A stretch of DNA of 64,000 nt, from IMG/VR virus record IMGVR_UViG_2910903598_000005, positions 69,058 to 133,057 of that record. The stretch is one strand, 5' to 3'. Below, one piece after another: positions 12,818 through 61,745 of this stretch (positions are counted from its first letter, which is position 1; the number at the start of each line of letters is the position of its first letter). The notes beneath the pieces were generated by a model. The model saw only the letters and a list, made by a program, of their open reading frames with translations, made no database searches and had not been told where the DNA came from. The position numbers and the translations under genes were made by a program. The DNA comes from a virus. Its lineage: Duplodnaviria; Heunggongvirae; Uroviricota; Caudoviricetes.

Positions 12818-12875
12818 TACAGCCTGCCCTTGGAAAATCTTGTTTGCAATCATATATAAGAATAGAGGTGAAAAT

Positions 12876-22793: not shown

Positions 22794-22831
22794 TTGCACC
22801 TATTGACAGGGTGCAAACAGTATGGTATATT
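22794..22831 (+). promoter_or_regulatory. Promoter (TTGACA, 16 nt, TATATT) inside palindromic operator TTGCACC-N9-GGTGCAA. Second copy of the cassette seen at 36-73.
   Basis: ttgcacctattgacagggtgcaaacagtatggtatatt, compared with the rc of 36-73: ttgcacccgttgacaaggtgcaaaaagtatgttaaaat. Confidence 0.55.
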
Positions 22832-22881
22832 TAATTCATGAAAATAAAAAATGCAACTGGGGAAAGTTGAGGGACGTAAAA

Positions 22882-33536: not shown

Positions 33537-33622
33537 ACTGGCATTTTATGACTCTATAAAACACAATATATAGTGATTATCCAATTATTGAACCACTATA
33601 TATAGTTGTATAAAGTGCCAGT
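33537..33622 (+). other. Long imperfect hairpin (ACTGGCA...TGCCAGT with inner ATATATAGTG / CACTATATAT) ending 4 nt before the tRNA 5' end
   Basis: Read directly. A possible precursor or leader structure, or a small RNA. Confidence 0.35.
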
Positions 33623-33625
33623 CAT

Positions 33626-33763
33626 GGAAACATAGCTCAGTTGGTAGAGCAGGCAATACATAAACATTCATTTTTCTACCTCCATATAAGTATTTTTATT
33701 TATTTACATTTAATTTTCATCACATATAAATTGCCGACACAGGTTCGATTCCTGTTGTTTCCA
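33626..33763 (+). tRNA. tRNA-like gene interrupted by an insertion of about 75 nt in the anticodon loop (identity undetermined)
   Basis: Perfect 7-bp acceptor stem GGAAACA/TGTTTCC. D-arm GCTC-AGTTGGTA-GAGC. Anticodon stem GGCAA ... TTGCC separated by about 74 nt. T-arm ACAGG-TTCGATT-CCTGT. Discriminator A. Terminator immediately downstream. Confidence 0.55.
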
Positions 33764-33765
33764 CT

Positions 33766-39247: not shown

Positions 39248-39552
39248 TGAACAACTTCTTATATATTGAATCACGGGAAGAAGAGAATACATCCCTCGAT
39301 TCTAAACGTGTTTTATTGAATGAAGAAAATTACAAACATATTATTTCATCATTAGATCATTATCCACCGACGGCAGACGAAGTTAAGAAAGCAATTTGTA
39401 TTTTGACTGGACGATTGATCTACAGAAGCGTTTGGAATATGGAATCTGATATTGATAGTTTAAATATGAGTTTATCACCGCCAAAAGAAATGACGGTTGC
39501 AGAAATTGAAAAGGAACTTGGTTATAAAGTTAAGATTGTAAAGGAGAAATAA
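39247..39552 (+). CDS. hypothetical protein (101 aa)
   Basis: Ribosome-binding site AAAGGAGAG. Confidence 0.5.
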   Translation: MNNFLYIESREEENTSLDSKRVLLNEENYKHIISSLDHYPPTADEVKKAICILTGRLIYRSVWNMESDIDSLNMSLSPPKEMTVAEIEKELGYKVKIVKEK

Positions 39553-39863
39553 TGCCAATGGCAAAAAAGAAACAAGGAATGTCGTTTGAAATGATGATGC
39601 AAAATATGGAAATTAATCCAAGGCAATTGTATCGTCGTAGTTCGTGGAAGAAGACACGAACAACTTATGATTATGTGTTTATGATGTGCGAAGAAGAATT
39701 AAATGAGATTATTCCATTTGATAAAAAATATAAAATGAAACCACTCTTATGTAGAGACCAAAATGGAGTTATAACATTGGGATGGTTGCCTACACAAGAG
39801 GATATTTTCGCAAATGATTGGGTTGAGCAAGGATGGGATTTTAACAGTAAAAGGAAGAGGTGA
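39552..39863 (+). CDS. hypothetical protein (103 aa)
   Basis: Ribosome-binding site AAGGAGAA. Confidence 0.5.
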   Translation: MPMAKKKQGMSFEMMMQNMEINPRQLYRRSSWKKTRTTYDYVFMMCEEELNEIIPFDKKYKMKPLLCRDQNGVITLGWLPTQEDIFANDWVEQGWDFNSKRKR

Positions 39864-39871
39864 ATAATTAA

Positions 39872-40171
39872 TTGAATTTTATAAAAGCAATGATCGCAAT
39901 AAAAAAAGACAAAACTACTATAAGAAGAGGCATTTGGGGAAAGGAAAAGTATTTGAAAATTTATTCGTCAGAATTAACTAATGTTTATTTTGAGTGTAAT
40001 GATATGGGTGAATATAAGCCAGATTCAATTATTTTTTTATTTGATAAAGAAAACGCAGAAGTTTGGATACCTCTTGCGGAAGATGTATATGCAGATGACT
40101 GGGAAATATATGTTGAATCGGTTAAAAAGCCAAATCAATCAAAAGCAAAGGTGAAGGAGAAAGAAGAATGA
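39872..40171 (+). CDS. hypothetical protein (TTG start)
   Basis: Ribosome-binding site AAGGAAGAGGTG upstream of TTG. Confidence 0.4.
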   Translation: MNFIKAMIAIKKDKTTIRRGIWGKEKYLKIYSSELTNVYFECNDMGEYKPDSIIFLFDKENAEVWIPLAEDVYADDWEIYVESVKKPNQSKAKVKEKEE

Positions 40172-40581
40172 AAGTGTTTTTAGGCGGAACATGCTCTGGA
40201 TGGAAGTGGAGAGACCAGCTACAGAAGATGTTGGATTGTGATTATTATAATCCAATCGTAAAAAATTGGAGTGAAGAAGACCGACTGCGGGAAGTCAAGG
40301 AAAGAGAAGAATCTGACTATGTTCTGTATGGCATTACGAATGGTATTAAAGGAGTATACAGTATTGCAGAAGTAGTTGATGATTCTCATAAGCGACCAGA
40401 TAAAGTGATCTTTCTTAATCTCTATCAGGAACAAAAGAATAAAGAATCTAAGCAGATGAGCCACAGTTTAAAAGCAGTCGAAAATTTATTGAAAGAAAAT
40501 CGTATTAAAGTATATTCTGGCGTACATGCTATGCAGGATGTTGCAGATTTTCTTAACTTAATGAATAAACGAAAGGGGTAA
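40168..40581 (+). CDS. nucleoside 2-deoxyribosyltransferase / DNPH1(Rcl)-like Rossmann protein, copy 1
   Basis: MKVFLGGTCSGWKWRDQL...YNPI resembles the N-terminal pattern (iYlAG...W) of PF05014-like proteins. Ribosome-binding site AAGGAGAAAG. Confidence 0.4.
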   Translation: MKVFLGGTCSGWKWRDQLQKMLDCDYYNPIVKNWSEEDRLREVKEREESDYVLYGITNGIKGVYSIAEVVDDSHKRPDKVIFLNLYQEQKNKESKQMSHSLKAVENLLKENRIKVYSGVHAMQDVADFLNLMNKRKG

Positions 40582-40587
40582 AGAAGA

Positions 40588-41541
40588 ATGAAATGTTTTT
40601 ATCATGTTGATCAGGACGGCATCGTATCTGGTTTCTATGTCAGAAAAGCTTGCGAACAGCGAGGTTTAGAGTTTAAACCAGAAGACTTCCGAAAAATTAA
40701 TTACGGCATGAAATTCCCGTTTCATGACATTAAACAGGATGAATTTGTATTCATTGTAGACTACAGCATTGAGCCAGAAGAAATGTGGCAGTTGCTTAGT
40801 ATTACAAAGAATGTATTTTGGATCGACCATCATCAGTCTACGATTGAAGCGTATAAAGATTTCAAGTGTGATGTAAAAGGAATCAGAATTACTGGAGCGG
40901 GTATTTCAGGAGCGAATTTGACATGGTTATATTTTAAATATATGTGTGATGAAAATTGGGAGCAAATTGAGAGGACGGATGAGAAAAATGTAAAAAGATT
41001 ACTCAATATATATAAATATAAAGCAGATTATCCAAAACTGGCAGAATATACAGCCATGTGGGATACATTTTATTTTGGTGAAACGTCAAAACAATTCGTA
41101 AAAGCATTTCACTATGCATTTGAATCGTATGATTTTGATGCGTTAAGTCCATTGCTAAACACGTTAAATAAAGATCAAGGAATTTATGAAGCAGCAAAAA
41201 TTATTGGTGATATGATAGCAGATGGCTTATCAATTATTGAGTATTTAGCAGCAAATGCAGAACAATATCTTAGAGCATATGGTTTTGAAACCATATTTGA
41301 GGGACATAAAGTCTATGCAATCAACAGAGCGTTAATCAATTCTGATTTCTTCGAATCTATTGATGCTTCAAAATATGATATGTTTATTGGTTTCTCATTC
41401 AATGGTAGTATGTGGGAATATCAGTTACGATCAGCAGAACAGGATAAAGTAAATGTATATGAACTTGCTGTGAAATATGGTGGTGGCGGTCATCCGAATG
41501 CAGCTGGATTTAGAAGTGAGAAATATGTGTTAGGAGTGTGA
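40588..41541 (+). CDS. DHH-DHHA1 family phosphoesterase (NrnA-like nanoRNase / pAp phosphatase)
   Basis: Motifs HVDQDGIVSG, WIDHHQS and C-terminal GGGGHPNAAGF. Ribosome-binding site AAAGGGGTAAAG. Confidence 0.7.
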   Translation: MKCFYHVDQDGIVSGFYVRKACEQRGLEFKPEDFRKINYGMKFPFHDIKQDEFVFIVDYSIEPEEMWQLLSITKNVFWIDHHQSTIEAYKDFKCDVKGIRITGAGISGANLTWLYFKYMCDENWEQIERTDEKNVKRLLNIYKYKADYPKLAEYTAMWDTFYFGETSKQFVKAFHYAFESYDFDALSPLLNTLNKDQGIYEAAKIIGDMIADGLSIIEYLAANAEQYLRAYGFETIFEGHKVYAINRALINSDFFESIDASKYDMFIGFSFNGSMWEYQLRSAEQDKVNVYELAVKYGGGGHPNAAGFRSEKYVLGV

Positions 41542-41544
41542 TGT

Positions 41545-42330
41545 ATGTCAAAGAAAAATACAAGAGAAATTGAACGTGCTTTTAGTAAAAGCAGAGATCC
41601 AGATTGGGAAGCCGATGTAGAAATTTATGGAAAAAGGATTTTAAAAACAGTACGTGGTATTTGTCTTGGTGATGAATGGACAGAAATTAATTCATTGAGA
41701 AATAAGGATCGGATTGAGTTAGCGGAGATGTTTTGTAATTTTGACGATCATAATCCACATTTTAATCTTAGCCCTCAATATGTTTTATTGGATAAGTTTT
41801 CTATAACATCTCCTGCGATATTGTGTAGCAATGAAATAGTTATGAAAAATGGCAAAGTTTTGAGTGTTGATAATATATCAGCAAATCTATCAGGCGAAAA
41901 TGAGGTATACAAGATTTATTCAAATACGAAATATGATGATTATACATATTATGATGAATCAAAAAATTTAGTATTTGAATTAGCATCAAAAGATGTTGAT
42001 AAGATAATCCGATTTATGAGAGATTTTATGGATGTATTGCGTGACAGTAAGTTAACAAAGTATAGAAATAGTAGTTTTTTATGGAGACTATTTAACACTC
42101 TTGATATGCCATATTTTAAACAAACATATTCCATGAATGATTTGAAAAAATATACAAACACATTTAGATCTGAGGTTTGTGGTCAACTAGAAGAAACTAT
42201 TCCTAATTTTAAATATACTGGAGTTCCAATGGGCGGGTATATTGAAAGATATTTTGAATTAAGTTATGTAGAGGAAGTACAAAAATTTATTAAAGAACAG
42301 GAGGCTAAGAAATGTGAAGAAACTAAATGA
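41545..42330 (+). CDS. hypothetical protein (261 aa)
   Basis: Coupled to the upstream gene. Confidence 0.5.
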   Translation: MSKKNTREIERAFSKSRDPDWEADVEIYGKRILKTVRGICLGDEWTEINSLRNKDRIELAEMFCNFDDHNPHFNLSPQYVLLDKFSITSPAILCSNEIVMKNGKVLSVDNISANLSGENEVYKIYSNTKYDDYTYYDESKNLVFELASKDVDKIIRFMRDFMDVLRDSKLTKYRNSSFLWRLFNTLDMPYFKQTYSMNDLKKYTNTFRSEVCGQLEETIPNFKYTGVPMGGYIERYFELSYVEEVQKFIKEQEAKKCEETK

Positions 42331-42865
42331 TGAACAGCGAAAGCTGATTGAAGATAATTATTCTTTGATTTGGCATTTGCATGAGAAGTATTTTACAAAA
42401 TTTAAAGATTTTGATACATATATGGATCTTGGTCGTATGGCAATTTGCAAAGCAGCATTAAAATGGGATGAGTCTAAAGGTAATTTTGGGACGTATTTTA
42501 GATGGGTATTACAGTCAGAAATTAATAAATATTATATAAAATGGCATAGCCCAACAGAGAAAATGAACAGAAATGCGGAATCATTGGATGCACCTGTTGA
42601 CGAAAGAGTTGACGCAGAAGAATTAACAATTGGTAGTTTGCTTGTGAGTAACGATGACATAGAGAGTCAAGCACTAACAACAGTATATTATCAAGGAGAA
42701 TTTAACAAATTATCAGACAAGCAGAAGAAAATTATATATATGTTACTTGATGATATTGAGCATAAATACATAGCCAAAGAATTTGGAAAGAGTATTCAAT
42801 GGGTAAGTTGGCAACTTGGTAATATTAAAAAAATAATGCATAGGGCAAAGGCGGTGAGATCATGA
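42314..42865 (+). CDS. sigma-70 family RNA polymerase sigma factor, copy 1
   Basis: Region 2-like YMDLGRMAICKAALKWDESKGNFGTYFRWVLQSEINKY and region 4 HTH LSDKQKKIIYMLLDD...YIAKEFGKSIQWVSWQ. GTG start after GGAGG. Confidence 0.65.
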   Translation: MKKLNDEQRKLIEDNYSLIWHLHEKYFTKFKDFDTYMDLGRMAICKAALKWDESKGNFGTYFRWVLQSEINKYYIKWHSPTEKMNRNAESLDAPVDERVDAEELTIGSLLVSNDDIESQALTTVYYQGEFNKLSDKQKKIIYMLLDDIEHKYIAKEFGKSIQWVSWQLGNIKKIMHRAKAVRS

Positions 42866-43695
42866 CAATTGAAGAAGTGAAAGATTACATAAACTCGTCT
42901 ACAGAGTATGATTTTTTGCGAGATTATCCTCATAAAATCGCTTTTCTCACACTAGGTGGAAGTTATGCTTACGGAACAAATACAGAGGATTCTGACATTG
43001 ATTTACGTGGTGTTTTCCTTAGTGATAAAAGAGAGATTTTGTTGAATAATAATCCAAATAATCTTGAAAAGACAGACGATCATAAAGATGTTGATACTGT
43101 GTTACATTCGCATATTAAGATGATCAATATGCTTGCAAAGGGTAATCCTACGTTTTTAGAGCTGTTATATTTTGCACCAGACCGCTATTTATATATATCT
43201 GATATTGGTATGGAACTGATCAAAAATAGAGATATGTTTTTATCTAAGAGAGTTTATCATGCATATAAAGGATATATATGTGATTGCCTGACTCGAACGA
43301 GTTTTAAGTATTATAAAAATAAAGATTCAGAGAAAGAAAAGCAAAAGGCGGAACGATACGCTAATAAATCAATGATGCACGCAGTTCGATTATTGTTACA
43401 GGGCATTGAATTATTGCATAACGGAACAATGTTAGGATCTATGGATGACATAGGAAAAGATCTTGTAAAGATCAAAGAAGGATATAATAGTACGCATAAA
43501 ACATATAGATTTAGCAAACACAATGAGCATACAGAATATTTCCCAAATCAGTCATACGATGTTTTTATTGAAGGATTACTTTATCAATTTGATTATGATT
43601 ATATGAATACTGATTTGCCAGACGAACCAGACTGGGATCGTATCAATAACTTCTTGATGACAACAAATGAACGAATTGTGAGAGGAATGGTGTAA
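42862..43695 (+). CDS. Pol-beta-superfamily nucleotidyltransferase (RlaP-like)
   Basis: GGSYAYGTNTEDSDIDLRGVF (G-S...SD.D) and a helical region KSMMHAVRLLLQGIELLHNGTM. Confidence 0.55.
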   Translation: MTIEEVKDYINSSTEYDFLRDYPHKIAFLTLGGSYAYGTNTEDSDIDLRGVFLSDKREILLNNNPNNLEKTDDHKDVDTVLHSHIKMINMLAKGNPTFLELLYFAPDRYLYISDIGMELIKNRDMFLSKRVYHAYKGYICDCLTRTSFKYYKNKDSEKEKQKAERYANKSMMHAVRLLLQGIELLHNGTMLGSMDDIGKDLVKIKEGYNSTHKTYRFSKHNEHTEYFPNQSYDVFIEGLLYQFDYDYMNTDLPDEPDWDRINNFLMTTNERIVRGMV

Positions 43696-43697
43696 AA

Positions 43698-43967
43698 ATG
43701 TATGTAAAGATTGGAGACGAAATTGCTTTTCATCCTGGCGAATGCTTAGAAGAATTTGTTGAATCTTGCAGGATGACTCCTTATCAGCTTGCGAGTCAAA
43801 TCGGCATGGATGTTGATTATGTGCAAGGGCTGATTAACGGATCACAAAGTGTTACAAAAGAATTTGCGAAAACAATGGCAGACCATTATGGGTTTGCTGA
43901 TGATGGACAGTTCTGGTTAAATTTACAAGAAACATTTAATAAGAAAGTGGGTGGTAGAGATGTTTAA
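43698..43967 (+). CDS. HigA-family antitoxin-like helix-turn-helix protein (orphan)
   Basis: HPGECLEEFVESCRMTPYQLASQIGMDVDYVQGLINGSQSVTKEFAKTMADHYGF...WLNLQ matches the HigA/VapI pattern. No HigB-like ORF upstream. Confidence 0.6.
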   Translation: MYVKIGDEIAFHPGECLEEFVESCRMTPYQLASQIGMDVDYVQGLINGSQSVTKEFAKTMADHYGFADDGQFWLNLQETFNKKVGGRDV

Positions 43968-44493
43968 ATTAATAAAACGCCCACGTTCTGATAACGATAA
44001 ATGTACTAAATATGATGTTGTGCTTGATAAAGAGTATACTGTAGAAGAATTTATTGATGCGATTGCAGATGGAAGAAATGGAACGCATGGTCAAATCACA
44101 ATAAAAAATGATAAAGAAGCCATTGAATCACTTGTCTATAATATCGAGAGTATTGATTATAGACATTGTATACTTCAAAATGCTGAAGAAAAAATTAAAC
44201 AAGTATGGGCAGATGGTAGCTGGTTAAAAATCAATTATACTATCTTGCTTGAAAACAAAAAGGAAACACAAAAAGGTGCGCTCAGATTCATTGTTAAGAA
44301 ACCAAATGGAGAAGAATCAGTGGTTGTTATTTTTAAGAACAAGTCAGATGGCACATATTCATTTGTTAATTTGACCAAAGAGCATATTTGTTCATGTAAA
44401 TTTAAAACAATCGAGGAAGCGATTCAGGATATGAATGATCGACTAAGGAAAGGATTGATTGAGTCATATGTTATGAAAGGAGAAAGAAAATAA
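43951..44493 (+). CDS. hypothetical protein (180 aa)
   Basis: Overlapping start. Long ORF. Confidence 0.5.
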   Translation: MVEMFKLIKRPRSDNDKCTKYDVVLDKEYTVEEFIDAIADGRNGTHGQITIKNDKEAIESLVYNIESIDYRHCILQNAEEKIKQVWADGSWLKINYTILLENKKETQKGALRFIVKKPNGEESVVVIFKNKSDGTYSFVNLTKEHICSCKFKTIEEAIQDMNDRLRKGLIESYVMKGERK

Positions 44494-44831
44494 TGGATGT
44501 ACATATTGGAGATTTTTGGCAGAGTAAATGTAATCCAAAAGTAATTCAACATGTGGTTAATTTTTCATTTAGAATGGGTGGATTTCCAAGTAGTAAAGAT
44601 ATGCTACTGATCTGTGAAGAATTTCATTATACAAAGATAGGTGAGAATCCTGCCTCTGTCAAAGAAGATTCCAGATTCTTTTCACATATTACAGTGGATA
44701 ATTTTAAAAAGATGAATCAATGTATTCTAAGTGCTGAGAGGATTATGAAAGATACTCAGGCATTTAAAACAGATAAAGATATTTTGGATTATTTAACAAA
44801 GAAAGTGGAGGAGAAATTAAATGCAAAATAA
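44493..44831 (+). CDS. hypothetical protein (112 aa)
   Basis: Ribosome-binding site AAAGGAGAAAG. Confidence 0.5.
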   Translation: MDVHIGDFWQSKCNPKVIQHVVNFSFRMGGFPSSKDMLLICEEFHYTKIGENPASVKEDSRFFSHITVDNFKKMNQCILSAERIMKDTQAFKTDKDILDYLTKKVEEKLNAK

Positions 44832-45294
44832 TGTATTTCAGATTTATCTTGCAGGCGGTATGCAGGATTTATCATTTGAAGAGCAGAATACTTGGAGAGA
44901 AAGAATTTGCAATCAAATTATTGCTATGCGTAGAATACTTAATGTTAATATGAAAGAAGTCAACATTATTAACCCCGTTGATTATTACAATTTTCAAACA
45001 GAGTTACATGATACAGAAAAAGAAGTAATGAGATTTGATACAAATTTTGTTAGAAATAGTGATCTTGTTGTGGTAAATGCGAATGATCCGAAGAGCATTG
45101 GTACATCTATGGAGATTGCAATTGCATATGAACGTCATATTCCTGTACTGATTTTGAATACAGAAAAGAAAAGATTGCATGCTTGGTGGGTGCAAATGTC
45201 TGACAAGATATTTGACGATGAGAAAAAATTATGTACATATATATATGACTTTTATCTCAGGATGAATCATAGTAGTATTCGAGCATGGGTGTAA
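44821..45294 (+). CDS. nucleoside 2-deoxyribosyltransferase / DNPH1-like protein, copy 2
   Basis: IYLAGGMQ...W...NPVDY...SDLVVVNANDPKSIGTSMEIAIAYERHIPVLIL matches the PF05014 pattern. Ribosome-binding site GGAGGAG. Confidence 0.6.
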   Translation: MQNNVFQIYLAGGMQDLSFEEQNTWRERICNQIIAMRRILNVNMKEVNIINPVDYYNFQTELHDTEKEVMRFDTNFVRNSDLVVVNANDPKSIGTSMEIAIAYERHIPVLILNTEKKRLHAWWVQMSDKIFDDEKKLCTYIYDFYLRMNHSSIRAWV

Positions 45295-45332: not shown

Positions 45333-45381
45333 ACCACAATATATAGTATGTCTATAAATATTATATACTATATATTGTGGT
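45333..45381. repeat. perfect 17-bp inverted repeat ACCACAATATATAGTAT / ATACTATATATTGTGGT with a 15-nt loop
   Basis: Read directly. Not followed by a T-run on the + strand. Confidence 0.55.
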
Positions 45382-45509
45382 AGAAAAGGAGTTGAAACAC
45401 TATTACAGCAGAAAAACAAGGCAAGTTTATTATTTTCCATCTGGATGATGATAAAACTTGCAAATATGATTTATCAAATGGTGATTGCTATGGCAAGAGC
45501 GGCAAGAAA

Positions 45510-46544
45510 GTGAAAGCTTTGAACAATATTCTGTCTGGACATTCAGCTGATGAATTGGATAAATTGTTTGTGTCCGATCCACATTATGCAGAGTTTCTAA
45601 AATATGTAAATTGGCGAAGAAATTGTGAAATGGGAAGAACTACATGGGGCTTCATTGATTATAATTTAGGAACTTTGTTTGAATATGCAAGTAAGTATTC
45701 TATGTGCGAGCAGTTCTTTGCTATAGGTTTTACACACAAACAAGTCACAGAAGATTTTAAATATTCAATTAATGAAGTACCAAAATGGTTGAGAAATTAT
45801 TGTCTTGGTGTGAAGAATAGACGATTGTTAAGTAATGATTTTGTTGATTTTTATAAGATGTATCCAGATTATGTACAAACGATTTTACAGACAGAGTATA
45901 TGACATTAACTAAAGAATATTTAATAAATTTCTTTGAGGATAATCATAGATATCGTTTTACGAAAATTTTGGAGGCTTTAAATCAGGATTATGGCTATAA
46001 TCTTGCAGATGTGTTTGTTTATATAGATAGAATAATTACATTTGAAGCTGTTACCAATAGTATAAATTGGTTACTCGGAGAATTGCGTGATTATGCCCGT
46101 ATGATGGACGCAATCAGTCATAAATTTGATAGATATCCAAGACATTTCAAAACAACAATGGATATTGTCACAAGAAATTACAAAAGATTACAAAAAGAAT
46201 TTTCGGAAGAAGTCTTTAAGAGCCGTATTAATAAAGAATACGAATTTACATATAAAGGACTGAGATTCTTTTATCCAGACTCCACTCAAGACATTAAAGA
46301 CGAAGCGGTGCAGCAAAATAATTGTGTGGCAAGTTACATAGATCGAGTCATTGATGGCGAATGCCATATCATGTTTTTGAGAAACGCAAAAGAACCAAAC
46401 AAATCCTTAGTGACGATTGAAATACAAAATGGACGAATCGTACAAGCACTGCAAAGATTCAATGATCCTCTAACTGCCGATCAACAAGAAGCGGTCGATG
46501 CATGGAATGAACATTTTAGTAAGAAAGGTAAGGTGGCAGCATGA
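45510..46544 (+). CDS. hypothetical protein (344 aa or longer). The reading frame is open and protein-like from 45396 with ribosome-binding site AAAAGGAG at 45383-45390 but no ATG, so it may start at ATT 45402.
   Basis: The track start is GTG 45510. Upstream in-frame text ...TITAEKQGKFIIFHLDDDKTCKYDLSNGDCYGKSGKK looks coding. Confidence 0.5.
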   Translation: MKALNNILSGHSADELDKLFVSDPHYAEFLKYVNWRRNCEMGRTTWGFIDYNLGTLFEYASKYSMCEQFFAIGFTHKQVTEDFKYSINEVPKWLRNYCLGVKNRRLLSNDFVDFYKMYPDYVQTILQTEYMTLTKEYLINFFEDNHRYRFTKILEALNQDYGYNLADVFVYIDRIITFEAVTNSINWLLGELRDYARMMDAISHKFDRYPRHFKTTMDIVTRNYKRLQKEFSEEVFKSRINKEYEFTYKGLRFFYPDSTQDIKDEAVQQNNCVASYIDRVIDGECHIMFLRNAKEPNKSLVTIEIQNGRIVQALQRFNDPLTADQQEAVDAWNEHFSKKGKVAA

Positions 46545-49281: not shown

Positions 49282-49824
49282 ATGTCGTTGAAATTAAATG
49301 ACGAACAGAGAAAATTGGTAGAACAAAATCATAATTTGATTTACTCTGCTATGACAAAATGCGGTATCCGCAGACAAGATTTTGATGACTATTATGGATT
49401 CGCTGCTATTGGGTTGTGTAAGGCAGCAATTGATTATGATGAAACACGATCTAAATCATTTTCGACATATGCGTATTTATGTATACAAAATGAAATAACG
49501 GTATATAACAAATACAGATTTCGGCAGAGAAGAAAGGGCGATATGAATACTATTTCATATAATCATATGTTAGATGATTGGGATGAAGACAAAAATGAAA
49601 ATTCATTTCTTTTAAAGGATGAAGAAAATTTTGAAAAAAATATTATTTTCAAGTTGAATTTTCAAGATAAATGTTACACACTAAATAATAAGGACAGAAT
49701 GATTGTTGATTTAAAATCAAAAGGTTATACATATCAAGAAATCGCAAAAATGTTTGGTACATCATTTCAAGCGATACAACAAAAGATTAAAAGAATGCGA
49801 TCAACAACATTTTCCAGATTATAA
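49282..49824 (+). CDS. sigma-70 family sigma factor, copy 2
   Basis: LNDEQRKLVEQNHNLIY...GFAAIGLCKAAIDYDETRSKSFSTYAYLCIQNEI, and C-terminal HTH MIVDLKSKGYTYQEIAKMFGTSFQAIQQKIKRMR. Paralogous to 42314. Confidence 0.65.
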   Translation: MSLKLNDEQRKLVEQNHNLIYSAMTKCGIRRQDFDDYYGFAAIGLCKAAIDYDETRSKSFSTYAYLCIQNEITVYNKYRFRQRRKGDMNTISYNHMLDDWDEDKNENSFLLKDEENFEKNIIFKLNFQDKCYTLNNKDRMIVDLKSKGYTYQEIAKMFGTSFQAIQQKIKRMRSTTFSRL

Positions 49825-54684: not shown

Positions 54685-55713
54685 ATGTTAGACAATATAA
54701 AAAAAGAACTATTGTCTAATCCTGAAAAAATAAGAGAAGTCTTGGAGCATTTTGATTATTGTCATGTAGTGATCAGAAACACATATATGTCATTTGGTCG
54801 AGATGAGGTCTCTTCAAAGAAGTCCATAGTAATCAATCTGAAAAATAACAAAGCGTTGTTTGTGCATGATTATGCTAGAGCAATCCAAAAAGATTTGTTC
54901 TCATATATTATGCAGCAACGTGGAGTTGATTTTGCAGAGGTTTTAGGAGTTGTTAAAAACATCTTAGGGATTACTGATTACTATGATTTCTTTGATAGAC
55001 AAGGTATTTTTGGCGGATTTTATGAAAGGATTAGAAATCACAATGTAGTTCGAATCCAAACTTATGATGAATCTATATTAGATAAATACAATAATGTAGG
55101 GAATTTAAGATTCCTTAAAGATAATATATCACTTGAAGCACAAAGAACTTTTGGCATTCGGTTTGATACATCATCTCAAGGGATCGCAATTCCGATTAGA
55201 AATCAATTAGGACAACTAATTGGTGTAAAAGAAAGATTTAACTATGATGTTGAAGATGGTGAAATGAAATATTTCTACGATGTTCCGTGTCAAATGTCTC
55301 AAACATTATATGGATATTCTCAGAATTATCAGTATTTAGCCAACGGTGTTGTGTTGATATTTGAGGCAGAGAAATCTGTAATGCAGTGTTTTACATATGG
55401 AATTAGAAACTGTGTGGCACTTGGCAGTGGAACAATCAGCAAGAAACAGGTGCAATTATTATTGGAATTAAATCCTAAAAAAGTAATATTTATGCATGAT
55501 GTTGGCTATGATATTGAGAATATTATGAGAAATATTGACATGGTAAAAGGATACTCAAGATTTGCTGAGATTGAGTTAGGATACTGGGACTTTAATTTAA
55601 GTGAGTATTCCAATAAGGTATCACCGTCCGATATGGGAAAAGAAAAGTTAAATTACATATTAGAAAACGAAATAAAAATGATAGGGGATGAAGACGTCGA
55701 AGAAGAAATATAA
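54685..55713 (+). CDS. DNA primase (DnaG-like, Toprim domain)
   Basis: Toprim region FEAEKSVMQCFTYGIRNCVALGSGTIS...VIFMHDVGYD (E ... DxD). Confidence 0.6.
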   Translation: MLDNIKKELLSNPEKIREVLEHFDYCHVVIRNTYMSFGRDEVSSKKSIVINLKNNKALFVHDYARAIQKDLFSYIMQQRGVDFAEVLGVVKNILGITDYYDFFDRQGIFGGFYERIRNHNVVRIQTYDESILDKYNNVGNLRFLKDNISLEAQRTFGIRFDTSSQGIAIPIRNQLGQLIGVKERFNYDVEDGEMKYFYDVPCQMSQTLYGYSQNYQYLANGVVLIFEAEKSVMQCFTYGIRNCVALGSGTISKKQVQLLLELNPKKVIFMHDVGYDIENIMRNIDMVKGYSRFAEIELGYWDFNLSEYSNKVSPSDMGKEKLNYILENEIKMIGDEDVEEEI

Positions 55714-57307
55714 CATTTTGAACGATTGCAGAGGACTTTTTGAAGATGAGGTGTTTGAAATTATCATGCAGGAGCGTGGTATTGACGATCCAGAGCATTT
55801 TCTAAATCCTACGGAAGATGATTTACTTTCTCTTGATGACTTAAAAAATATTGATAAAGCATATAAGCTTTTGGTAGATGCAGTATACAAAGATAAACGT
55901 ATTGCAGTACATTTTGACACAGATACTGACGGAGTTGCAGCGGGAACTATTATTACACGACATTTAAAAAACATGACAGAAAATCCAGTAGATGTATACA
56001 TTAACCGAGGCAAACAGCATGGATTAGCAAATCAGGACATTGCTAAGTTTTATGGGTATGATTTACTGATTGTCGTTGATAGTTTGGATAAAGACGAGAC
56101 TCAGTATAAGGATTTAAAAGAAACAGGAGTTGATGTGATTGTGTTAGACCACCATGCCATCGATCCAGATGTTCCTTATGACAACTATTGCACATTAGTT
56201 TCTTCTCAGAGAGAATATGAAAATCCACAGCTATCTGGCGCAGGTGTTGTTTGGAAGTTTTGCAAGTATATTGATGAGCAGAATGGTACAGATTATGCAG
56301 ATGATTTGGTCGATCTAGCAGGTGTTGGGCTGATTGCAGATATGATGGATATGAGAGTAATGGAGAATCGTTACATTGTATCCGAAGCTTTGAAAGAAAT
56401 TAGAAATCCTGCGATTAAGAAGATTATTGGTGGATTTGAATTCAACAGCACAGCAGTTGCTTTTAGTATTGCACCGTTGGTTAATGCTGCAAACAGAATG
56501 GATCAGAATGAAATTGCCCTAAATGCTTTCCTTGAAGACGACAATAAAAAGTTACGAGGATATATTAAACAGTTAAAGCAATGCAAAGAAGACCAAAATG
56601 AAGAGGTCGCACAGCTGATGCCAATGATTGTGGAACAGTGTGAAGCTCAGAGTTATAAAAAGATGATCACAACTTTTATCGACACTGATTATGGTATTTC
56701 TGGGTTAATTGGAAACAAATTGCTTGAAAAATACCAGAAGCCGATTCTTGTGCTAAAGAAAAATGAAGATACATATGCAGGATCTATGCGAGCAGTTGGT
56801 GTAAAAGACTTCCGACAGATGTGTAATAACAGTCAGTTGGCTGAAGCAAATGGACATGAACTTGCCAGTGGTATTGAAATTCCTAGAAAGAACTTCGCTG
56901 AGTTCACCTCTTATATAGAAGAAACTCTTTCAGATAAGCCAGAAGATACAACAGTTGATGTCGATATTATGCTTGATATTTCAGACATCACAAGAAAAAT
57001 GGTTGACATGATTAAGAAAATTGATCGTATTTCTGGACAAGGATTTAAACCTGTAAGAGTTTATATTGAAGAGATTGACGACTATGACATTGGTCAGATG
57101 AGCAATTATAAACATCTTGTCCTGAAACCATGTAACAATGATAAATTGTGGATCATTAAATGGAACTACGATGGATCATTTGAGGATATGGAAGACCACT
57201 CTATGATGAATGATGAATTTTGTGCTGTAACTACTCTTGATTGTGGATTCTTTGGCAGAAAGTTTGTGCTGAAAGCAGTGTGTGATTCACTTGAAGAGGT
57301 GGGATGA
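55688..57307 (+). CDS. RecJ-like single-strand DNA exonuclease (DHH/DHHA1)
   Basis: Motifs IAVHFDTDTDGVAAG, VIVLDHH and distal GSMRAVGV/ANGHELASG. Confidence 0.7.
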   Translation: MKTSKKKYNILNDCRGLFEDEVFEIIMQERGIDDPEHFLNPTEDDLLSLDDLKNIDKAYKLLVDAVYKDKRIAVHFDTDTDGVAAGTIITRHLKNMTENPVDVYINRGKQHGLANQDIAKFYGYDLLIVVDSLDKDETQYKDLKETGVDVIVLDHHAIDPDVPYDNYCTLVSSQREYENPQLSGAGVVWKFCKYIDEQNGTDYADDLVDLAGVGLIADMMDMRVMENRYIVSEALKEIRNPAIKKIIGGFEFNSTAVAFSIAPLVNAANRMDQNEIALNAFLEDDNKKLRGYIKQLKQCKEDQNEEVAQLMPMIVEQCEAQSYKKMITTFIDTDYGISGLIGNKLLEKYQKPILVLKKNEDTYAGSMRAVGVKDFRQMCNNSQLAEANGHELASGIEIPRKNFAEFTSYIEETLSDKPEDTTVDVDIMLDISDITRKMVDMIKKIDRISGQGFKPVRVYIEEIDDYDIGQMSNYKHLVLKPCNNDKLWIIKWNYDGSFEDMEDHSMMNDEFCAVTTLDCGFFGRKFVLKAVCDSLEEVG

Positions 57308-58575
57308 TTATGTATGAAGATTTAATTGCAAAAATTATCCCAACATTAAAATTTAAATTTCCATATTCTGTTGAAGATTATGGAAGAAATCTATATCTTG
57401 AAAACTACCATTGTCATAAAGATTTTAGTAATACATCAACTCCAGATTGTGCAGAATCAATTGAAAATTATGCAAAACGTATTCATGAATTTGGTGCAAA
57501 ATGTCTTTATTCAGGGGAGCATGGGTCACAAGGAAACCAGTTTGAAGTATATAAAGTGGCTGAAAAGGAGCATTTGAAATATATTCATTCTGCTGAAGCC
57601 TACTGGGTGAAAGATAGAAAAGAAAAAGACAAAGCAAACTGTCATATGATGATACTTGCGAAAAATGCTGAAGGGAGAGAAGATATTAACTTCGCCCTTT
57701 CTATGGCAAATATTGATGGATATTATTACAAACCAAGAATTGACTTAGAATTACTTTTTAATATTCCAAAAGAGAATGTAATTGTTACATCAGCTTGCTT
57801 ATCTGGTTGGCATTATAAAGATGCAGAGGACATTTGGTTAAAAATACATGACTATTTTGGCGATAATTTCTTTTTAGAAGTGCAGGCTCATAATACTGAT
57901 CCACAAAAAAGACTTAACAGAAAAATCTTAAAACTTGCAAAAGAACACAATATTCAGATCATTTGTGGGCTTGATAGTCATTACATTGATGATAAGACGG
58001 CAGTAAAAAGGGATCAGATTTTAAAGTACAAGCATATTGAATATCCAGAAGAATTTGGATGGTATATGGATTATCCAGACACAACAACGGTTATAGAGCG
58101 ATTTCAAGAGCAAGGAGTTCTTTCTGATGAAGAAGTCTTAACTGCTATTATGAACACAAACGTGTTCATGTCAGAATGCGAAGAAATTGTTTTTGACAGA
58201 AAATTTAAAATTCCAAGCGTTCATAAAGATAAAACATATGAAGGCAAATGTGCTATTTATAAGAAAATATTAAACAAAGCCTATGCTAAAGAAAAAGAAA
58301 AATCAAAAGAAAAAGCAGATGGAATTAGGTATGAAGCAAAACAAGTCATGGATTCAGGAGTTGTAGATTACTTTTTAACAAGTAAAGCAATTGTAGATGA
58401 TGCAGTAAATTGCGAAGGTGGAATATTAACTACTACGTCAAGAGGTAGCGCTGCATCATTCATTACAAATAAGTTGCTAGGATTAACAACGGTAGATAGA
58501 TTCAATGCAGATATTCCTATTTATCCAGAACGCTTTTTAACAAAAGACCGTGTTTTAGCAGGTCAGATGCCCGAT
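57304..58575 (+). CDS. DNA polymerase III alpha subunit, exon 1 (PHP domain), ending at the conserved MPD of the MPDxDxDF motif
   Basis: ENYHCHKDFSNTSTPDCAESIENYAKRIHEFGAKCLYSGEHGSQGNQFEVYKVAEKEHLKYIHSAEAYW is a PHP domain. The last residues are ...ERFLTKDRVLAGQMPD, then an in-frame stop. Confidence 0.65.
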
Positions 58576-59717
58576 TAAAACAATAGTGCATATAAACCAG
58601 TAAAGGAGGAATTTTTATTACAGGTATTTACTGTATTGAAAATATTGTAAATCATAAAAAATATGTTGGACAAAGTGTAGATATAAATGATCGATGGAAA
58701 CATCATCTAAATAGTTTAAGAAGAAACGATCATGCAAATTGTTATTTGCAACGTAGTTTTAATAAATATGGTGAAGAAAGTTTTAAACATTATATTTTAG
58801 AAGAGTGTAAAAGAGAAGATCTTGATGAGAAAGAGAAGAGTTGGATTAAAAAATTAAACACATATAAAAATGGCTACAATATGAATGGTGGTGGATCTGG
58901 ATGTTATATCCCAAATCCTACAGATGAATATAGAGAAAAAATGCGAAGAATGGTTATGGGGACGAATAACCCAAATTATGGGCATAAATGGACTGAAGAA
59001 ATGAAAAGAAATTTATCTCAAAAAAAGATTGGGAAAAATTTAAATGAAAATAACCCAAATGCCAAGTCTGTAATATGTGTTGAAACTCTAAAAATATATA
59101 AGACACAAAAGGATGCTGCAAAAGAATTACATATTAAAAATACATCATCAATATCAAGGTGCTTATTAAATAAACAAAATTTAGCTTATGGTTATCATTT
59201 TGTTTTATATACAAAAGAAATGTATGAATATTTATTAAACAATCAATTTGAGTATTTGTGCGAATGTAATGTCGGACGAAAAATCTATGCAGATATGACT
59301 AATAAAAGATTTTATTTGTTGAAAGATATGATGAAAAAATTGTATCCACTACTAAATTGCACTCAACGAGAACTAAAACAATTTCTTAAACAAGAAAAGT
59401 TCAATGTAAATAACGTAGAATATGTACTGTTATAATAGTCGCTATATGTAGTGATATATATAGAAAACCCAGAATATCAGGGGAAGTCCTAAAACCTTGT
59501 CCACCAAGCATTAGAGAAATCAAAATGTGGCATTGTTAACTGCAATGATATGGTAACAGCGGCAAGGATTGGATAATCCTGAGAGATAGCCCTAAGTTGT
59601 TTAAATATACAATATGGGAAGCTCGCAACGACTACCAATGGGAATCCGAGATAATATCGACGATTATGGTATAGTCTACTCCCCTATTAAAATATCGGGA
59701 AACCGAGGGTATCAAGG
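58576..59717 (+). mobile_element. Putative group I intron carrying a GIY-YIG homing-endonuclease ORF, inserted in the Pol III alpha gene
   Basis: Lies between conserved polymerase segments. The 3' ~280 nt has group-I-like core elements: R-like GCAACGACTACC (59625-59636) pairing with S-like TATAGTCTAC (59672-59681) through GACTA/TAGTC, and a P4-like AGGATT/AATCCT (59565-59580). Boundaries are approximate, not confirmed. Confidence 0.5.
58617..59435 (+). CDS. GIY-YIG homing endonuclease (I-TevI-like), probable non-AUG (ATT) start
   Basis: GIYCIENIVNHKKYVGQSVDINDRWKHH is a GIY-YIG motif. The frame is open from 58596. Ribosome-binding site AAAGGAGGA at 58602-58610. There is no ATG, GTG or TTG before the GIY motif; ATT at 58617 has 7-nt spacing. 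Confidence 0.55.
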   Translation: MTGIYCIENIVNHKKYVGQSVDINDRWKHHLNSLRRNDHANCYLQRSFNKYGEESFKHYILEECKREDLDEKEKSWIKKLNTYKNGYNMNGGGSGCYIPNPTDEYREKMRRMVMGTNNPNYGHKWTEEMKRNLSQKKIGKNLNENNPNAKSVICVETLKIYKTQKDAAKELHIKNTSSISRCLLNKQNLAYGYHFVLYTKEMYEYLLNNQFEYLCECNVGRKIYADMTNKRFYLLKDMMKKLYPLLNCTQRELKQFLKQEKFNVNNVEYVLL

Positions 59718-61745
59718 ATTGACCTAAATGTAGCTACTCAGGAGCCATTTGTGAAAGCTGCAAAAAAACTTCTTGGAGAGCATGGATGTTATCCGTTAAT
59801 GGCTATAGAAAAGTTAAAAGAGAAAGCAGCATGGCAATTATATGCTGGAGCTAATGATGTTAGTTCAGAAGATGCAAATAGAATTTCAAAATATCTTGAT
59901 GATTATAATAAAGCATTGAAATATGCTGATGAAGAAGATAAAGATTTTATTCATGTTGAAGACTACATTCCAGAAGAATATGTTGATTTATTTAAACAAA
60001 GCAATGAGTACCAAGGAATCACTATCAATCTAAAAGTACATGCTTGTGGACATTTTATATTCGACGGAGATATTCGTAGAGAAGTAGGATTAATTAGTGC
60101 TGTTTCAGAAACGACTGGGAAAAGAACAATTTGTGCCGCCATTGAAGGTGGCTATCTTGATGAATTTGGATATGTAAAAGAAGATTTTCTTATTGTAGAT
60201 AGTGTTTATCTTACATATAAATTTTTTCACAGTATAGGAATGGAGGTTCCTACATCTGAAGAACTGAGAGAGATGATAGAAGGAGATCATAAAACATGGG
60301 ATATTTATGCAAAAGGAATTACTTGTTGTGTTAACCAATGTGAAAAAGAAGCGACAACAAATAGAGCAAAGAAATATAAGCCACAAAATTTAGCAGAATT
60401 AAGTAGTTTCATTGCTGCAATTAGACCAGGATTTGCATCTTTATTAAATACTTTTTTAAATCGTGAACCATATTCAACAGGCGAAAAGAAAATTGATGAG
60501 TTGTTACAAGATACAGCACATTTTATGATTTATCAAGAGTCAATTATGAAGGTATTATCTTTCCTGCAATTGAAGATGGGCGAAACGTATGGAGTTATTA
60601 AAAATATCTCGAAAAAAAAATATAAAGCTCATCCTGAAAAGTTAAAAGAACTGAAAGAAAGATTAAAAGATGGTTGGCAAATTGAAATTGGAGAACTTAA
60701 TAATTTCAATAATATATGGGAAGTTATAGACTCATCAGCTTCGTACGCCTTCAACTCTCCGCATGCTTGGTCGATGGCTGAGGATTCTGCCTATCAGGCA
60801 TGGTTTAAAGCTCATTATACGAAAATGTTCTATGAAGTAGCAATTAATCATTACCAAGAAAAAAATAAGAAAGATAAAATTGATGCTCTAGTAAAAGAAG
60901 CCATTAAATTTTGGGGATATAAATTGGGAGATTATCGGTTTGGAGCAGACAATAGAAAAGTCACGATTGATGAAGAACATAAAATTATATATCCCAATTT
61001 ATCAAGCATTAAAGGATTTGGAGAAGGTGTCGCCAATTCACTATATGATTTAGGACAGGCTAAATACAGCTCATTCATAGAAGTAATCAATGTATTAAAG
61101 CAGAATCATCTCAATAAAACAGTGATAGACAAATTAATTAAAATTAATTATTTTGTAGAGTTCGGAGATGCGAATACCTTATTAGAAACAGTTAAATATT
61201 ATGAATTATTAAATGGGAAAAAGCAATTGTCCAAAGAAAAGGCGATAGAATATCACATTTCTTCTGATTTACTTTTGAAGTATGGTCATGAGACAAAAAC
61301 ACTTTATAATCAATTAGATTCAGAACAATTACTTATTGAATCTATAAAAAATATTCCATACAGAGAATTGTCTTTGAAAGAAAAATTAGACAATCAGAGA
61401 AATGTTCTCGGAATTGTAAGCTATGCTAACGTAAAAGTTAATAAACGATTATATTATGTTTCAGATCTTGATGTTAAAAAATCCATCGTTAACATTCAGT
61501 TATATGAAATTTACTCTGGAAAAACACAGAAAGTAAAAATGTGGACAAACCAATATAAGAAGAACCCATTCGATGAAGGAGATATTCTATATCTGAAATC
61601 AGTTGAGAAGAAACATAAAAAAGAACCAACTGGGGAGATCAATACAAAAACAGGAAAGAAAATCTACAAAGATGTGCCAGATAAATTTGAGTTTTGGCTT
61701 AAGAATTTCACTATTAAAAATGACGTAGAGGAGGAATTAGTATAA
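59718..61745 (+). CDS. DNA polymerase III alpha subunit, exon 2 (palm/fingers core); the 5' boundary is a hypothesis
   Basis: ASYAFNSPHAWSMAEDSAYQAWFKAHYTKMF matches the Pol III alpha FNKSHAAAY...LKAHYP motif. The frame is open from 59691 (IDLNVATQ... could continue MPD-IDL). The track start is GTG 59751. Confidence 0.6.
   Translation: MDLNVATQEPFVKAAKKLLGEHGCYPLMAIEKLKEKAAWQLYAGANDVSSEDANRISKYLDDYNKALKYADEEDKDFIHVEDYIPEEYVDLFKQSNEYQGITINLKVHACGHFIFDGDIRREVGLISAVSETTGKRTICAAIEGGYLDEFGYVKEDFLIVDSVYLTYKFFHSIGMEVPTSEELREMIEGDHKTWDIYAKGITCCVNQCEKEATTNRAKKYKPQNLAELSSFIAAIRPGFASLLNTFLNREPYSTGEKKIDELLQDTAHFMIYQESIMKVLSFLQLKMGETYGVIKNISKKKYKAHPEKLKELKERLKDGWQIEIGELNNFNNIWEVIDSSASYAFNSPHAWSMAEDSAYQAWFKAHYTKMFYEVAINHYQEKNKKDKIDALVKEAIKFWGYKLGDYRFGADNRKVTIDEEHKIIYPNLSSIKGFGEGVANSLYDLGQAKYSSFIEVINVLKQNHLNKTVIDKLIKINYFVEFGDANTLLETVKYYELLNGKKQLSKEKAIEYHISSDLLLKYGHETKTLYNQLDSEQLLIESIKNIPYRELSLKEKLDNQRNVLGIVSYANVKVNKRLYYVSDLDVKKSIVNIQLYEIYSGKTQKVKMWTNQYKKNPFDEGDILYLKSVEKKHKKEPTGEINTKTGKKIYKDVPDKFEFWLKNFTIKNDVEEELV

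Follow-up and report, generated by a model that had tools for sequence, protein, structure and literature searches.

The window considered here is a 64,000-nucleotide stretch of a Caudoviricetes virus genome (IMG/VR record IMGVR_UViG_2910903598_000005, positions 69,058 to 133,057). Between about 39.5 and 49.8 kb it carries a run of small genes that includes a stand-alone DHH-DHHA1 phosphoesterase (DHH) and an RlaP-family nucleotidyltransferase (Table 1). An earlier note, made from the sequence alone, had grouped nine of these genes into a nucleotide-metabolism island, possibly directed against immune signalling and bracketed by two genes resembling nucleoside 2-deoxyribosyltransferases (NDT1 and NDT2). 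All nine open reading frames (ORFs) lie on the plus strand where that note had placed them, the strand that carries every gene of the window; the GC content is ~33%. From 39552 to 45294 the genes are tightly packed, with overlaps or with gaps of at most 8 nt, and a gap of 215 nt precedes the next gene. The window belongs to a population of phage genomes of ~140–170 kb from human-gut metagenomes (IMG/VR UViGs).

Table 1. Genes and other features of the region, in window positions.
Feature	Position	Strand	Basis and remarks
Tad2-like (DUF2829) gene, first of a tandem pair	39552..39863	+	PF11195, 34.2 bits (cut-off 25)
Tad2-like (DUF2829) gene, second of the pair	39872..40171	+	PF11195, 45.3 bits (cut-off 25); 4-nt overlap with the start of NDT1
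NDT1, PF15891-type NDT-like Rossmannoid protein; optional cassette	40168..40581	+	PF15891, E=3e-6, 28 bits
DHH, stand-alone DHH-DHHA1 phosphoesterase; backbone gene	40588..41541	+	phrog_4771, E=1e-35; motifs; AlphaFold2 (AF2) model
Lineage-specific ORFan, 261 aa	41545..42330	+	At least 4 divergent allele classes, or absent
Sigma-1, sigma-70/ECF-type; left boundary of a deletable ~7 kb block	42314..42865	+	TIGR02937; phrog_351
RlaP-family Pol-beta nucleotidyltransferase (RNA 3′-end nucleotide addition)	42862..43695	+	PF10127, E=6e-24
Xre/HigA-like helix-turn-helix (HTH) protein	43698..43967	+	TIGR02607, E=5e-11; HTH_31, E=6e-6; phrog_1381, E=1e-10
180-aa protein	43951..44493	+	Two allele classes, ~95% and 57%
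112-aa protein	44493..44831	+	Present in 26/45 relatives
NDT2, PF05014 nucleoside 2-deoxyribosyltransferase/DNPH1-superfamily N-glycosidase	44821..45294	+	PF05014, 32.1 bits; catalytic Glu
Perfect 17-bp inverted repeat with 15-nt loop, ACCACAATATATAGTAT	45333..45381		In the 215-nt gap before PcfJ
PcfJ-like protein; backbone gene after the region	45510..46544	+	PF14284, E=2e-19; in 43/45 relatives
Sigma-2; right boundary of the deletable block	49282..49824	+	Sigma70_r2, E=2e-9

Cassette exchange among related phages

The coherence of the region was examined by tblastn over 57, and then 45 full-length, related loci. Across nine genes, 40 combinations of allele classes occur in the 45 loci, and none of them equals the combination found in the window. 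Most of the genes exist as discrete, deeply diverged allele classes; for example, sigma-1 is found in classes of 99, 63 and 35%, NDT2 in classes of 100, 96, 81, 69 and 65%, and the 261-aa ORFan in classes of 100, 49 and 35% or not at all. The genes for DHH, sigma, HTH, RlaP and PcfJ are nearly always present, NDT1 is carried by 19 of the 45 relatives, and NDT1 and NDT2 are unlinked (Cramer's V 0.21, p=0.69). The mosaicism spans ~35–50 kb and thus runs past the limits of the proposed island. In two relatives (L124 and L125), everything from RlaP through NDT2 and PcfJ to sigma-2 is missing, and the single remaining sigma gene is a sigma-1/sigma-2 hybrid; in L124 (11745–12281), it combines the N-terminus of sigma-1 with a body of the sigma-2 type (54% identity, E=5e-68). 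The two sigma genes of the window are themselves paralogues (29% identity, E=4e-21), and the block in L124 and L125 was lost by recombination between them. If any genes bracket a deletable block here, the comparison points to the sigma paralogues.

On this evidence, the region reads as a series of cassettes in a common orientation, each swapped by homologous recombination independently of the others. The earlier note had itself named a lack of conservation among related phages as grounds for giving up the island, and the nine genes do not behave as one conserved unit: 40 haplotypes in 45 loci, an NDT1 gene present in fewer than half of them and a deleted block in two. Two NDT genes do bracket the others in the window, but this arrangement is not conserved. 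The locus illustrates how a functional island that looks plausible in a single genome can fall apart when it is set against relatives.

Exchange also reaches inside the RlaP gene, whose alleles form three recombinant cassettes (99, 77 and 54% identity) with identical gene ends. The first ~60 and the last ~28 codons are the same between alleles, and the middle is 38–88% identical at the nucleotide level. Nucleotide identity falls sharply from 100% to 50–65%; within the middle, the proportion of synonymous differences (pS) is 0.5–0.9, which is near-saturated, and the ratio of nonsynonymous to synonymous rates (dN/dS) is below 1. Mosaic alleles are also seen at L087 and L095 (8001–88xx). Positive selection in situ was ruled out by the low dN/dS, the saturated dS and the sharp identity breakpoints, which indicate cassette recombination. 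The pattern reflects old cassettes swapped via conserved gene ends and not recent diversification, and the variable middle is the helical and presumably RNA-binding part of the enzyme.

DHH, RlaP and the enzymes of tRNA 3′ ends

The assignment of DHH as a DHH-DHHA1 enzyme stands. Its Pfam score is sub-threshold and the PHROG match is strong (Table 1), the motifs H6/D8/D10, D58, D80-H81-H82, D159 and G299-G300-G301-H302 (GGGGH302) are invariant or nearly so in alignments of 16 and 44 sequences, and the AF2 model (predicted local distance difference test, pLDDT, 91.6) has the two-domain fold of DHH-DHHA1 enzymes, with a best Foldseek E-value of 5e-9. At E<=1e-3, 72 PDB entries were matched, and the top of the list consists entirely of DHH-family enzymes. 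The label NrnA-like, given in the earlier note, is too specific: DHH scores 16 bits with the NCBIfam NrnA equivalog NF053633 against a cut-off of 350, it is 12–16% identical to every solved member of the family, and RecJ-Cdc45, TmPDE, NrnA, GdpP and PggH rank equally in the Foldseek search. Its homologues are named 'oligoribonuclease NrnB/cAMP/cGMP phosphodiesterase' by JGI, a COG-style name only, and DHH ends ~15 residues past the GGGGH motif, lacking the NrnB-A extension of >100 aa. NrnB-type DHH enzymes are 3′-to-5′ exoribonucleases (PMC12709177).

The call of an RlaP-like Pol-beta nucleotidyltransferase also holds. The product scores 85.5 bits with PF10127 against a cut-off of 23, with residues 20–266 covered, and none of 10 sequences compared (35–78% identity) departs from the GGS motif (G32-G33-S34) or from D45, D47 and D78. 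All RlaP alleles of the window lineage lack an ~80-aa helical insert found in other phage RlaPs; a PDB sequence search with RlaP returned nothing informative. RlaP adds one or two nucleoside monophosphates (NMPs) to the 3′-OH of damaged RNA and is needed to restore aminoacylation of over-damaged tRNA that has lost a nucleotide (PMC12776372). Together with the CCA-adding enzyme and Thg1, it is a recognised nucleotide-restoring component of phage RNA repair (PMC7824862). These activities of characterised RlaPs speak against the earlier idea that this enzyme makes or transfers messenger nucleotides.

Homologues of the window DHH with 40–47% identity occur in several other phage lineages. Recurring in these distant loci are RlaP and a class II CCA-adding enzyme (PolyA_pol, HD and tRNA_NucTran2_2 domains), the latter immediately upstream of DHH, and the general order is RlaP-(unk313)-CCA-adding enzyme-DHH, sometimes with Thg1. 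Both partners accompany DHH at L055, L056, L109, L111, L112, L179, L181, L199 and L206. For example, L055 and L056 have the order RlaP-CCA-DHH with a Ro60/TROVE-related vWA protein nearby, L109 has the order RlaP-unk313-CCA-DHH-Thg1, and L199, which carries the same pattern as L206, is a prophage of Lachnospiraceae A4. In four further loci (L180, L169, L174 and L185), Thg1 lies at a distance of 2–10 kb. When 80 viral loci encoding the CCA-adding enzyme were considered, RlaP was found in 57, and in 44 the distance from the CCA stop codon to the start of a DHH-family ORF is −16 to +118 nt (median −7); this count was made with a profile hidden Markov model, and tblastn undercounted (12/80). Neither NDT1 and NDT2 nor the HTH and unknown proteins accompany DHH in the distant loci inspected. 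In the L165–L176 lineage, a sigma homologue lies directly 3′ of DHH, an arrangement also seen in those members of the window lineage that lack the ORFan.

DHH, which recurs beside RlaP, the CCA-adding enzyme and Thg1 in distant loci, is therefore a backbone gene that is most often accompanied, among functional partners, by tRNA-end enzymes. The one linkage to persist in distant phages joins DHH and RlaP to enzymes of tRNA-end repair, not to immune-signal degradation, and within the region DHH and RlaP are the only functionally linked pair. The components belong to known families, and the new element is the recurrent CCA-DHH(-RlaP) arrangement. RlaP-containing RNA repair systems were reportedly treated by Burroughs and Aravind in 2016; no description of the CCA-DHH(-RlaP) arrangement was found in the searchable literature, outside of which that work lies.

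Several further genes were considered around this arrangement. A protein of 313–365 aa without a Pfam family lies between RlaP and the CCA-adding enzyme in ~21 of the 80 CCA loci (L109, 5701–6642; L112, 2352–3449; L199, 7681–8616), and it may be an uncharacterised component of the RlaP/CCA/DHH module; the 261-aa ORFan of the window has no BLASTP similarity to it and was rejected as a homologue. Displacement of DHH by a calcineurin-like phosphoesterase after the CCA gene was ruled out, as DHH is also present in 7 of the 9 loci with that gene. Standard tRNA genes found little support as tight neighbours, with one present in only 22 of the 80 CCA loci at a median distance of 6.2 kb. Genes for the PTH2 peptidyl-tRNA hydrolase lie within 7–8 kb in L111 and L112, and a gene of the Acb2/Tad1-hairpin family stands directly downstream of the DHH homologue in L111 (8995–9381).

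On balance, we lean towards reading the segment from ~39.5 to 49.8 kb as part of a hypervariable accessory region, concerned with host takeover and counter-defence, of an SPbeta-like gut Firmicutes phage with a genome of ~160 kb, in which independent cassettes follow one another and DHH and RlaP would constitute a reduced tRNA/RNA 3′-end repair module serving counter-defence. From what is observed, the gene linkage and the intact catalytic residues, we infer as part of this reading a substrate and a pathway as follows. Host ribotoxins or tRNA-end-modifying toxins would produce tRNAs whose 3′ ends are missing, blocked or extended; DHH would trim or dephosphorylate the damaged end to yield a clean 3′-OH; RlaP, as has been shown for other RlaPs, would restore one or two nucleotides; and a CCA-adding enzyme would finish the end, the relatives using their own and the window phage that of its host. 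A bolder version is offered tentatively, as a possibility that we do not rate as probable. In it, the phage-specific DHH clade would be the 3′-end trimming or healing partner of the CCA-adding enzyme and RlaP, with or without Thg1, in a tRNA-end repair pathway of large gut Firmicutes phages for which no description was found in the searchable literature, present in reduced form in the window; the pathway would act against host toxins by which tRNA 3′ ends are cut, extended or chemically blocked, such as acceptor-stem nucleases, MenT-type nucleotide adders or enzymes of CapRel-type pyrophosphorylation. Should DHH work with RlaP and CCA-adding enzymes, it would close a gap to which RlaP biochemists have pointed, namely that RlaP needs a clean 3′-OH and the products of ribotoxins end phosphorylated. 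Such cooperation, if true, would represent a new and testable phage counter-defence at tRNA 3′ ends in abundant human-gut phages.

Objections and competing explanations

A number of observations weigh against the repair reading. The substrate of DHH is proposed from its gene neighbourhood only. No CCA-adding enzyme, RNA ligase, polynucleotide kinase (PNK) or RtcB was found among the scanned ORFs of the window, with ~100 kb of the genome lying outside it, and no standard tRNA gene was found in the window. RNA ligase, the genomic association to which RlaP owes its name, is likewise missing beside RlaP in the relatives inspected, as are RtcB and PNK; one related phage (L189) has an RNA ligase and a PNK-like kinase, away from RlaP. 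Since DHH is kept where RlaP and the CCA-adding enzyme are absent (L124 and L125; the L165–L176 lineage), its role does not strictly depend on them. The DHH and RlaP alleles assort independently (V=0.18), and an ORFan and a sigma gene separate the two genes in the window lineage. Many of the 80 CCA loci are closely related, so that 44/80 overstates the number of independent events, and the DHH/RlaP/CCA linkage could partly reflect shared residence in one accessory hotspot. Finally, the Acb2/Tad1-hairpin gene in L111 fits an anti-signalling neighbourhood equally well.

The NDT genes are central to the next explanation. NDT2 is a clear PF05014 protein, as the earlier note had it: its score exceeds the cut-off of 28.8 bits, the motif DPKSIGTSMEIAIA is present, E98 and E68 are invariant in 22 homologues, and E98 aligns with the Glu of the NDT 7m5h, to which NDT2 has a profile match at E=2e-3. 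NDT1 had also been called PF05014-like and is instead a PF15891-type protein by the weakest call of the region, just under the cut-off (28 vs 30 bits) and over its N-terminal half only; its homologues carry a precomputed PF15891 annotation, and the family, with 630 homologues, is 70–80% identical across Clostridia prophages. The part of the earlier call that may survive for NDT1 is the fold class, at a marginal E-value: its AF2 model (pLDDT 88) best matches the NDT-like folds 4mcj, 8of6 and 7o62 (template modelling score ~0.6, E ~1e-2), with other flavodoxin-like folds, among them TIR and GTPase, close behind. No characterised member of the PF15891-like family was found. The notion that the two genes are paralogues, a duplicated bracket, was rejected with an hhalign probability of 2%; they appear to represent different families of one fold class.

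The gene neighbourhoods of NDT relatives favour the nucleotide-pool alternative that the earlier note had also entertained. In prophages of Lachnospiraceae, Anaerostipes and Romboutsia, the NDT1 family lies between a Dam methylase and an NAD-dependent ligase (LigA), near ThyX, NT5C and NrdD; a Romboutsia-type phage has a PF05014 NDT 6 kb from its NDT1 homologue, and a distant NDT2 homologue in L189 adjoins FolD, near the RNA ligase and PNK-like kinase. Recently, a phage PF05014 NDT was shown to shift purine deoxynucleoside pools, with a preference for deoxyadenosine (dA) (bioRxiv 10.1101/2025.10.22.683976). These neighbours suggest nucleotide-pool roles for the NDT genes, and NDT2 probably adjusts deoxynucleoside or deoxynucleotide pools. 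The whole region could then be a matter of housekeeping, with DHH as a nanoRNase that turns 2–5-nt fragments of host RNA into NMPs and the NDTs rebalancing deoxynucleosides and deoxynucleotides for a 160 kb genome, without any role in defence. The region does lie just upstream of a replication module (AAA_24, DnaB, RecJ and DnaE), DHH is present in 45/45 relatives by tblastn, even where RlaP is deleted, and NrnA and NrnB are indeed nanoRNases (PMC12709177). However, this explanation does not say why the CCA and DHH genes overlap, apparently with translational coupling, in 44 of 80 loci, or why RlaP and Thg1 are associated with them, and genes of core metabolism do not usually vary as the NDT genes do, in being present or absent and in having several alleles. 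We regard it as unlikely.

Still less credit is given to the integrated anti-signalling island, according to which DHH degrades the messengers of cyclic oligonucleotide-based antiphage signalling systems (CBASS) or type III CRISPR, the NDTs and the nucleotidyltransferase process the products, and the HTH protein neutralises a host toxin. One argument for anti-signalling comes from a tandem pair of Tad2-like genes directly upstream of NDT1, outside the coordinates covered by the earlier note and missed there. The product of the second gene has an end-to-end phmmer match to SPO1 Gp34.65/Tad2 (8sme; E=4e-4), and that of the first has a C-terminal W-x-P...D...DW motif that aligns to Tad2/AcrIIA7-type PDB chains. 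Among the ligand contacts of SPO1 Tad2 (W25/N26, W73 and D79), the C-terminal W...P...D...DW is kept, and the phmmer alignment places the N-terminal W one position off. The two genes are gained or lost together, both being present in 24 of the 45 relatives. They probably encode sponges for the immune signal gcADPR that would sequester Thoeris-type signals; as such, they would lend the anti-signalling idea partial, family-level support, via different genes, by sequestration and as an independent cassette.

Other observations in its favour are that DHH-family enzymes can cleave c-di-AMP, pApA and cyclic oligoadenylates, DHH enzymes of jumbo phages having been suggested as a means of counteracting SMODS and type III signals (PMC7824862), that L111 has its Acb2/Tad1-hairpin gene after DHH, and that the region is hypervariable, as anti-defence loci are. 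Nevertheless, the genes are neither inherited nor conserved together, RlaP is an RNA 3′-end repair enzyme and no messenger synthase (PMC12776372), and the recurrent partners of DHH, namely the CCA-adding enzyme, RlaP and Thg1, do not suit an anti-CBASS or anti-type III enzyme. Three NrnB enzymes that were assayed, among which the phage clade of the window DHH is not represented, did not cleave c-di-AMP (PMC12709177), and scans of ten genes of the region with Pfam, PHROG, NCBIfam and PADLOC revealed no Acb1, Apyc1 or AcrIII-1/ring-nuclease-like domain. What persists of the original idea is a counter-defence and nucleotide-handling character, visible in the hypervariability among near-identical phages, the Tad2-like neighbours and the context of the NDT relatives; the one-island architecture and the roles assigned to RlaP and DHH find no support.

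The HTH gene next to RlaP, found in 41/45 relatives at >=89% identity, appears to encode a regulator or an orphan antitoxin. It was called HigA-type in the earlier note; the resemblance is real, including a match to phrog_1381 ('plasmid antitoxin with HTH domain'), but the TIGR02607 score of 42.3 bits falls below the curated cut-off of 47.7. A toxin–antitoxin-type module, in which the HTH protein forms an addiction pair with the 180-aa protein (or with an MntA-like RlaP) or disarms a host toxin as an orphan antitoxin, is very improbable: the HigA-like score, the 17-nt overlap of the HTH gene with the next ORF, the weak resemblance of the RlaP N-terminus to the MntA antitoxin nucleotidyltransferase (NCBIfam, E=1e-4) and the MazF/PemK-like and HicB-like proteins elsewhere in the window are outweighed by the flanking genes, in which Pfam, PHROG and PADLOC scans revealed no toxin domain such as HigB, RelE or HEPN, by 180-aa alleles that assort against a nearly invariant HTH gene and by an Xre-type HTH gene that flanks RlaP in L109 too, which fits a regulator.

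Surroundings and relation to known systems

Sigma-1, identified as a sigma factor in the earlier note, passes the TIGR02937 cut-off (45.1 vs 42.9 bits), matches phrog_351 at E=1e-17 and has weak Sigma70_r2 and Sigma70_r4 matches; it is predicted to serve phage transcription. The three proteins that had been listed as unknown, of 261, 180 and 112 aa, still have no significant family in Pfam, PHROG or NCBIfam, nor, for the latter two, in PADLOC, and the 261-aa ORFan has 11 representatives among 1.84 billion proteins. In the Lachnospiraceae A4 prophage, DHH is closely followed by a PcfJ homologue with 46% identity. In the window, the PcfJ frame is open for 38 codons upstream of its GTG start (45396–45510) without a canonical start codon. 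The stretch contains a Shine-Dalgarno-like site, AAAGGAG, with an ATT 10 nt downstream of it, and gene callers predict a separate 43-aa ORF at this place in L187.

The only sizeable intergenic gap contains the inverted repeat, with the motif CACAATATATAGT. Its core CACWATATATAGT is found twice more at 33562–33607 (6 matches vs 0.3 expected), just upstream of an interrupted tRNA gene, and the motif may be a phage promoter, operator or terminator. The interrupted tRNA gene (33626–33764, plus strand) has an AT-rich insertion of 67–81 nt in the anticodon loop and no encoded CCA. It was missed by default ARAGORN and scores 46.4 bits with the Rfam tRNA model, and its anticodon reads ATA or CAT, according to the boundary chosen for the insertion. 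The gene occurs with an insertion of 70–78 nt in 48/52 relatives and never uninterrupted, and a similar one stands at the syntenic site of a distant lineage (L185, 4833–4983). A group I intron was rejected, the insertion being too short. The interrupted tRNA might be a further substrate of phage RNA processing.

Upstream of the region lie antirepressor-like genes, an integrase-like gene, a MazF/PemK-like gene and an SPFH protein. Among the upstream genes are a HicB-like antitoxin gene (12840–13310), an integrase-family gene (20696–21646) overlapping a calcineurin-like phosphoesterase gene (21643–22389) and a MazF/PemK-like endoribonuclease toxin gene (22822–23331); the pair of integrase and PemK is found again in the distant lineage L185. 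Downstream, the replication module comprises an AAA_24/Sak4-like protein, DnaB, a RecJ-like second DHH protein, a split DnaE and ERCC4. The RecJ-like DHH-DHHA1 protein (539 aa, 55688–57307) is distinct from the 317-aa DHH described above. Two ORFs share the DnaE-type polymerase, one with the PHP/N-terminal part and the other with the finger/HhH part, and a NUMOD3 homing-endonuclease-like ORF separates them (57304–58578, 58746–59435 and 59751–61745); the split may represent an intron or a mobile insertion. TnpB/IS605 OrfB (Cas12f-like TNB) genes occupy differing sites of the accessory region in L055 (2685–3797), L109 (1073–2314), L187 (2096–3703) and L185 (20622 onward).

YorF, YorH and YopX-type genes are carried by relatives, which are also found as prophages, as in Lachnospiraceae bacterium A4. 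An assembly of Faecalibacillus intestinalis has an annotated NDT2 homologue. The hint as to the host is Faecalibacillus/Erysipelotrichales. Megablast of 38–47 kb against 50,697 phage records gave zero matches; the nearest isolates are Thomasclavelia phages, with a protein identity of only ~31%, and no cultured phage is close. Rfam at the gathering threshold gave no match on 36–50.5 kb, promoter and terminator scans did not rise above shuffled expectation, and PADLOC returned marginal hits only.

The region shares several features with the anti-defence hotspots of SPbeta-like and other phages, in which close relatives carry different counter-defence genes at the same position (bioRxiv 10.1101/2023.05.01.538930). 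In both cases, near-identical backbones are combined with alternative alleles and presence/absence cassettes, and the present region likewise holds a known anti-defence family, Tad2. Unlike the hotspots described, it extends over ~15 kb with more than 10 exchangeable slots and shows intragenic exchange in RlaP. This recombination hotspot can be mined for anti-defence genes, with the Tad2-like pair, three multi-allele ORFans and two NDT-like families as its present content. Two adjacent genes of the window exceed the PF11195 cut-off of the Tad2 anti-Thoeris sponge of Bacillus phage SPO1 (bioRxiv 10.1101/2023.05.01.538930); unlike SPO1 Tad2, they are tandem divergent copies, and the N-terminal W-N ligand contact is shifted in the alignment.

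With the NDT/DNPH1 (Rcl) superfamily, which includes phage NDTs proposed to deplete dA in dZ phages (bioRxiv 10.1101/2025.10.22.683976), NDT2 shares the D-x-x-S-x-G-T-x-x-E nucleophile motif. NDT1 is probably of the same fold class, and both NDT families are found among deoxynucleoside triphosphate-synthesis genes in relatives. Unlike dZ phages with NDT, the window has no PurZ- or DatZ-type genes or domains among its scanned ORFs, and a dZ (2-aminoadenine) pathway was rejected on this ground.

The closest counterparts of DHH are the nanoRNases NrnA and NrnB, TmPDE, Pde2, the GdpP catalytic domain, PggH and PAP phosphatase, with which it has in common the two-domain fold, the metal and catalytic motifs and a length of ~300 aa. 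Compared with these solved stand-alone DHH-DHHA1 phosphodiesterases, the window DHH belongs to a phage-specific clade with the CCA-adding enzyme as a conserved neighbour. For RlaP, the counterparts are the RlaP RNA repair systems, including phage T4 NrdC.11 and the RlaP/CCA/Thg1 sets of jumbo phages (PMC12776372; PMC7824862). The PF10127 enzyme with its GGS motif and three catalytic Asp residues is shared, and in related phages RlaP adjoins the CCA-adding enzyme and Thg1, as in those systems. The RlaP of the window lineage differs from known RlaPs in its missing helical insert and its three recombinant alleles. Unlike in the known systems, RNA ligase, RtcB, PNK and Hen1 are not found beside RlaP in the window or in most relatives, and the partner here is a stand-alone DHH-DHHA1 phosphoesterase.

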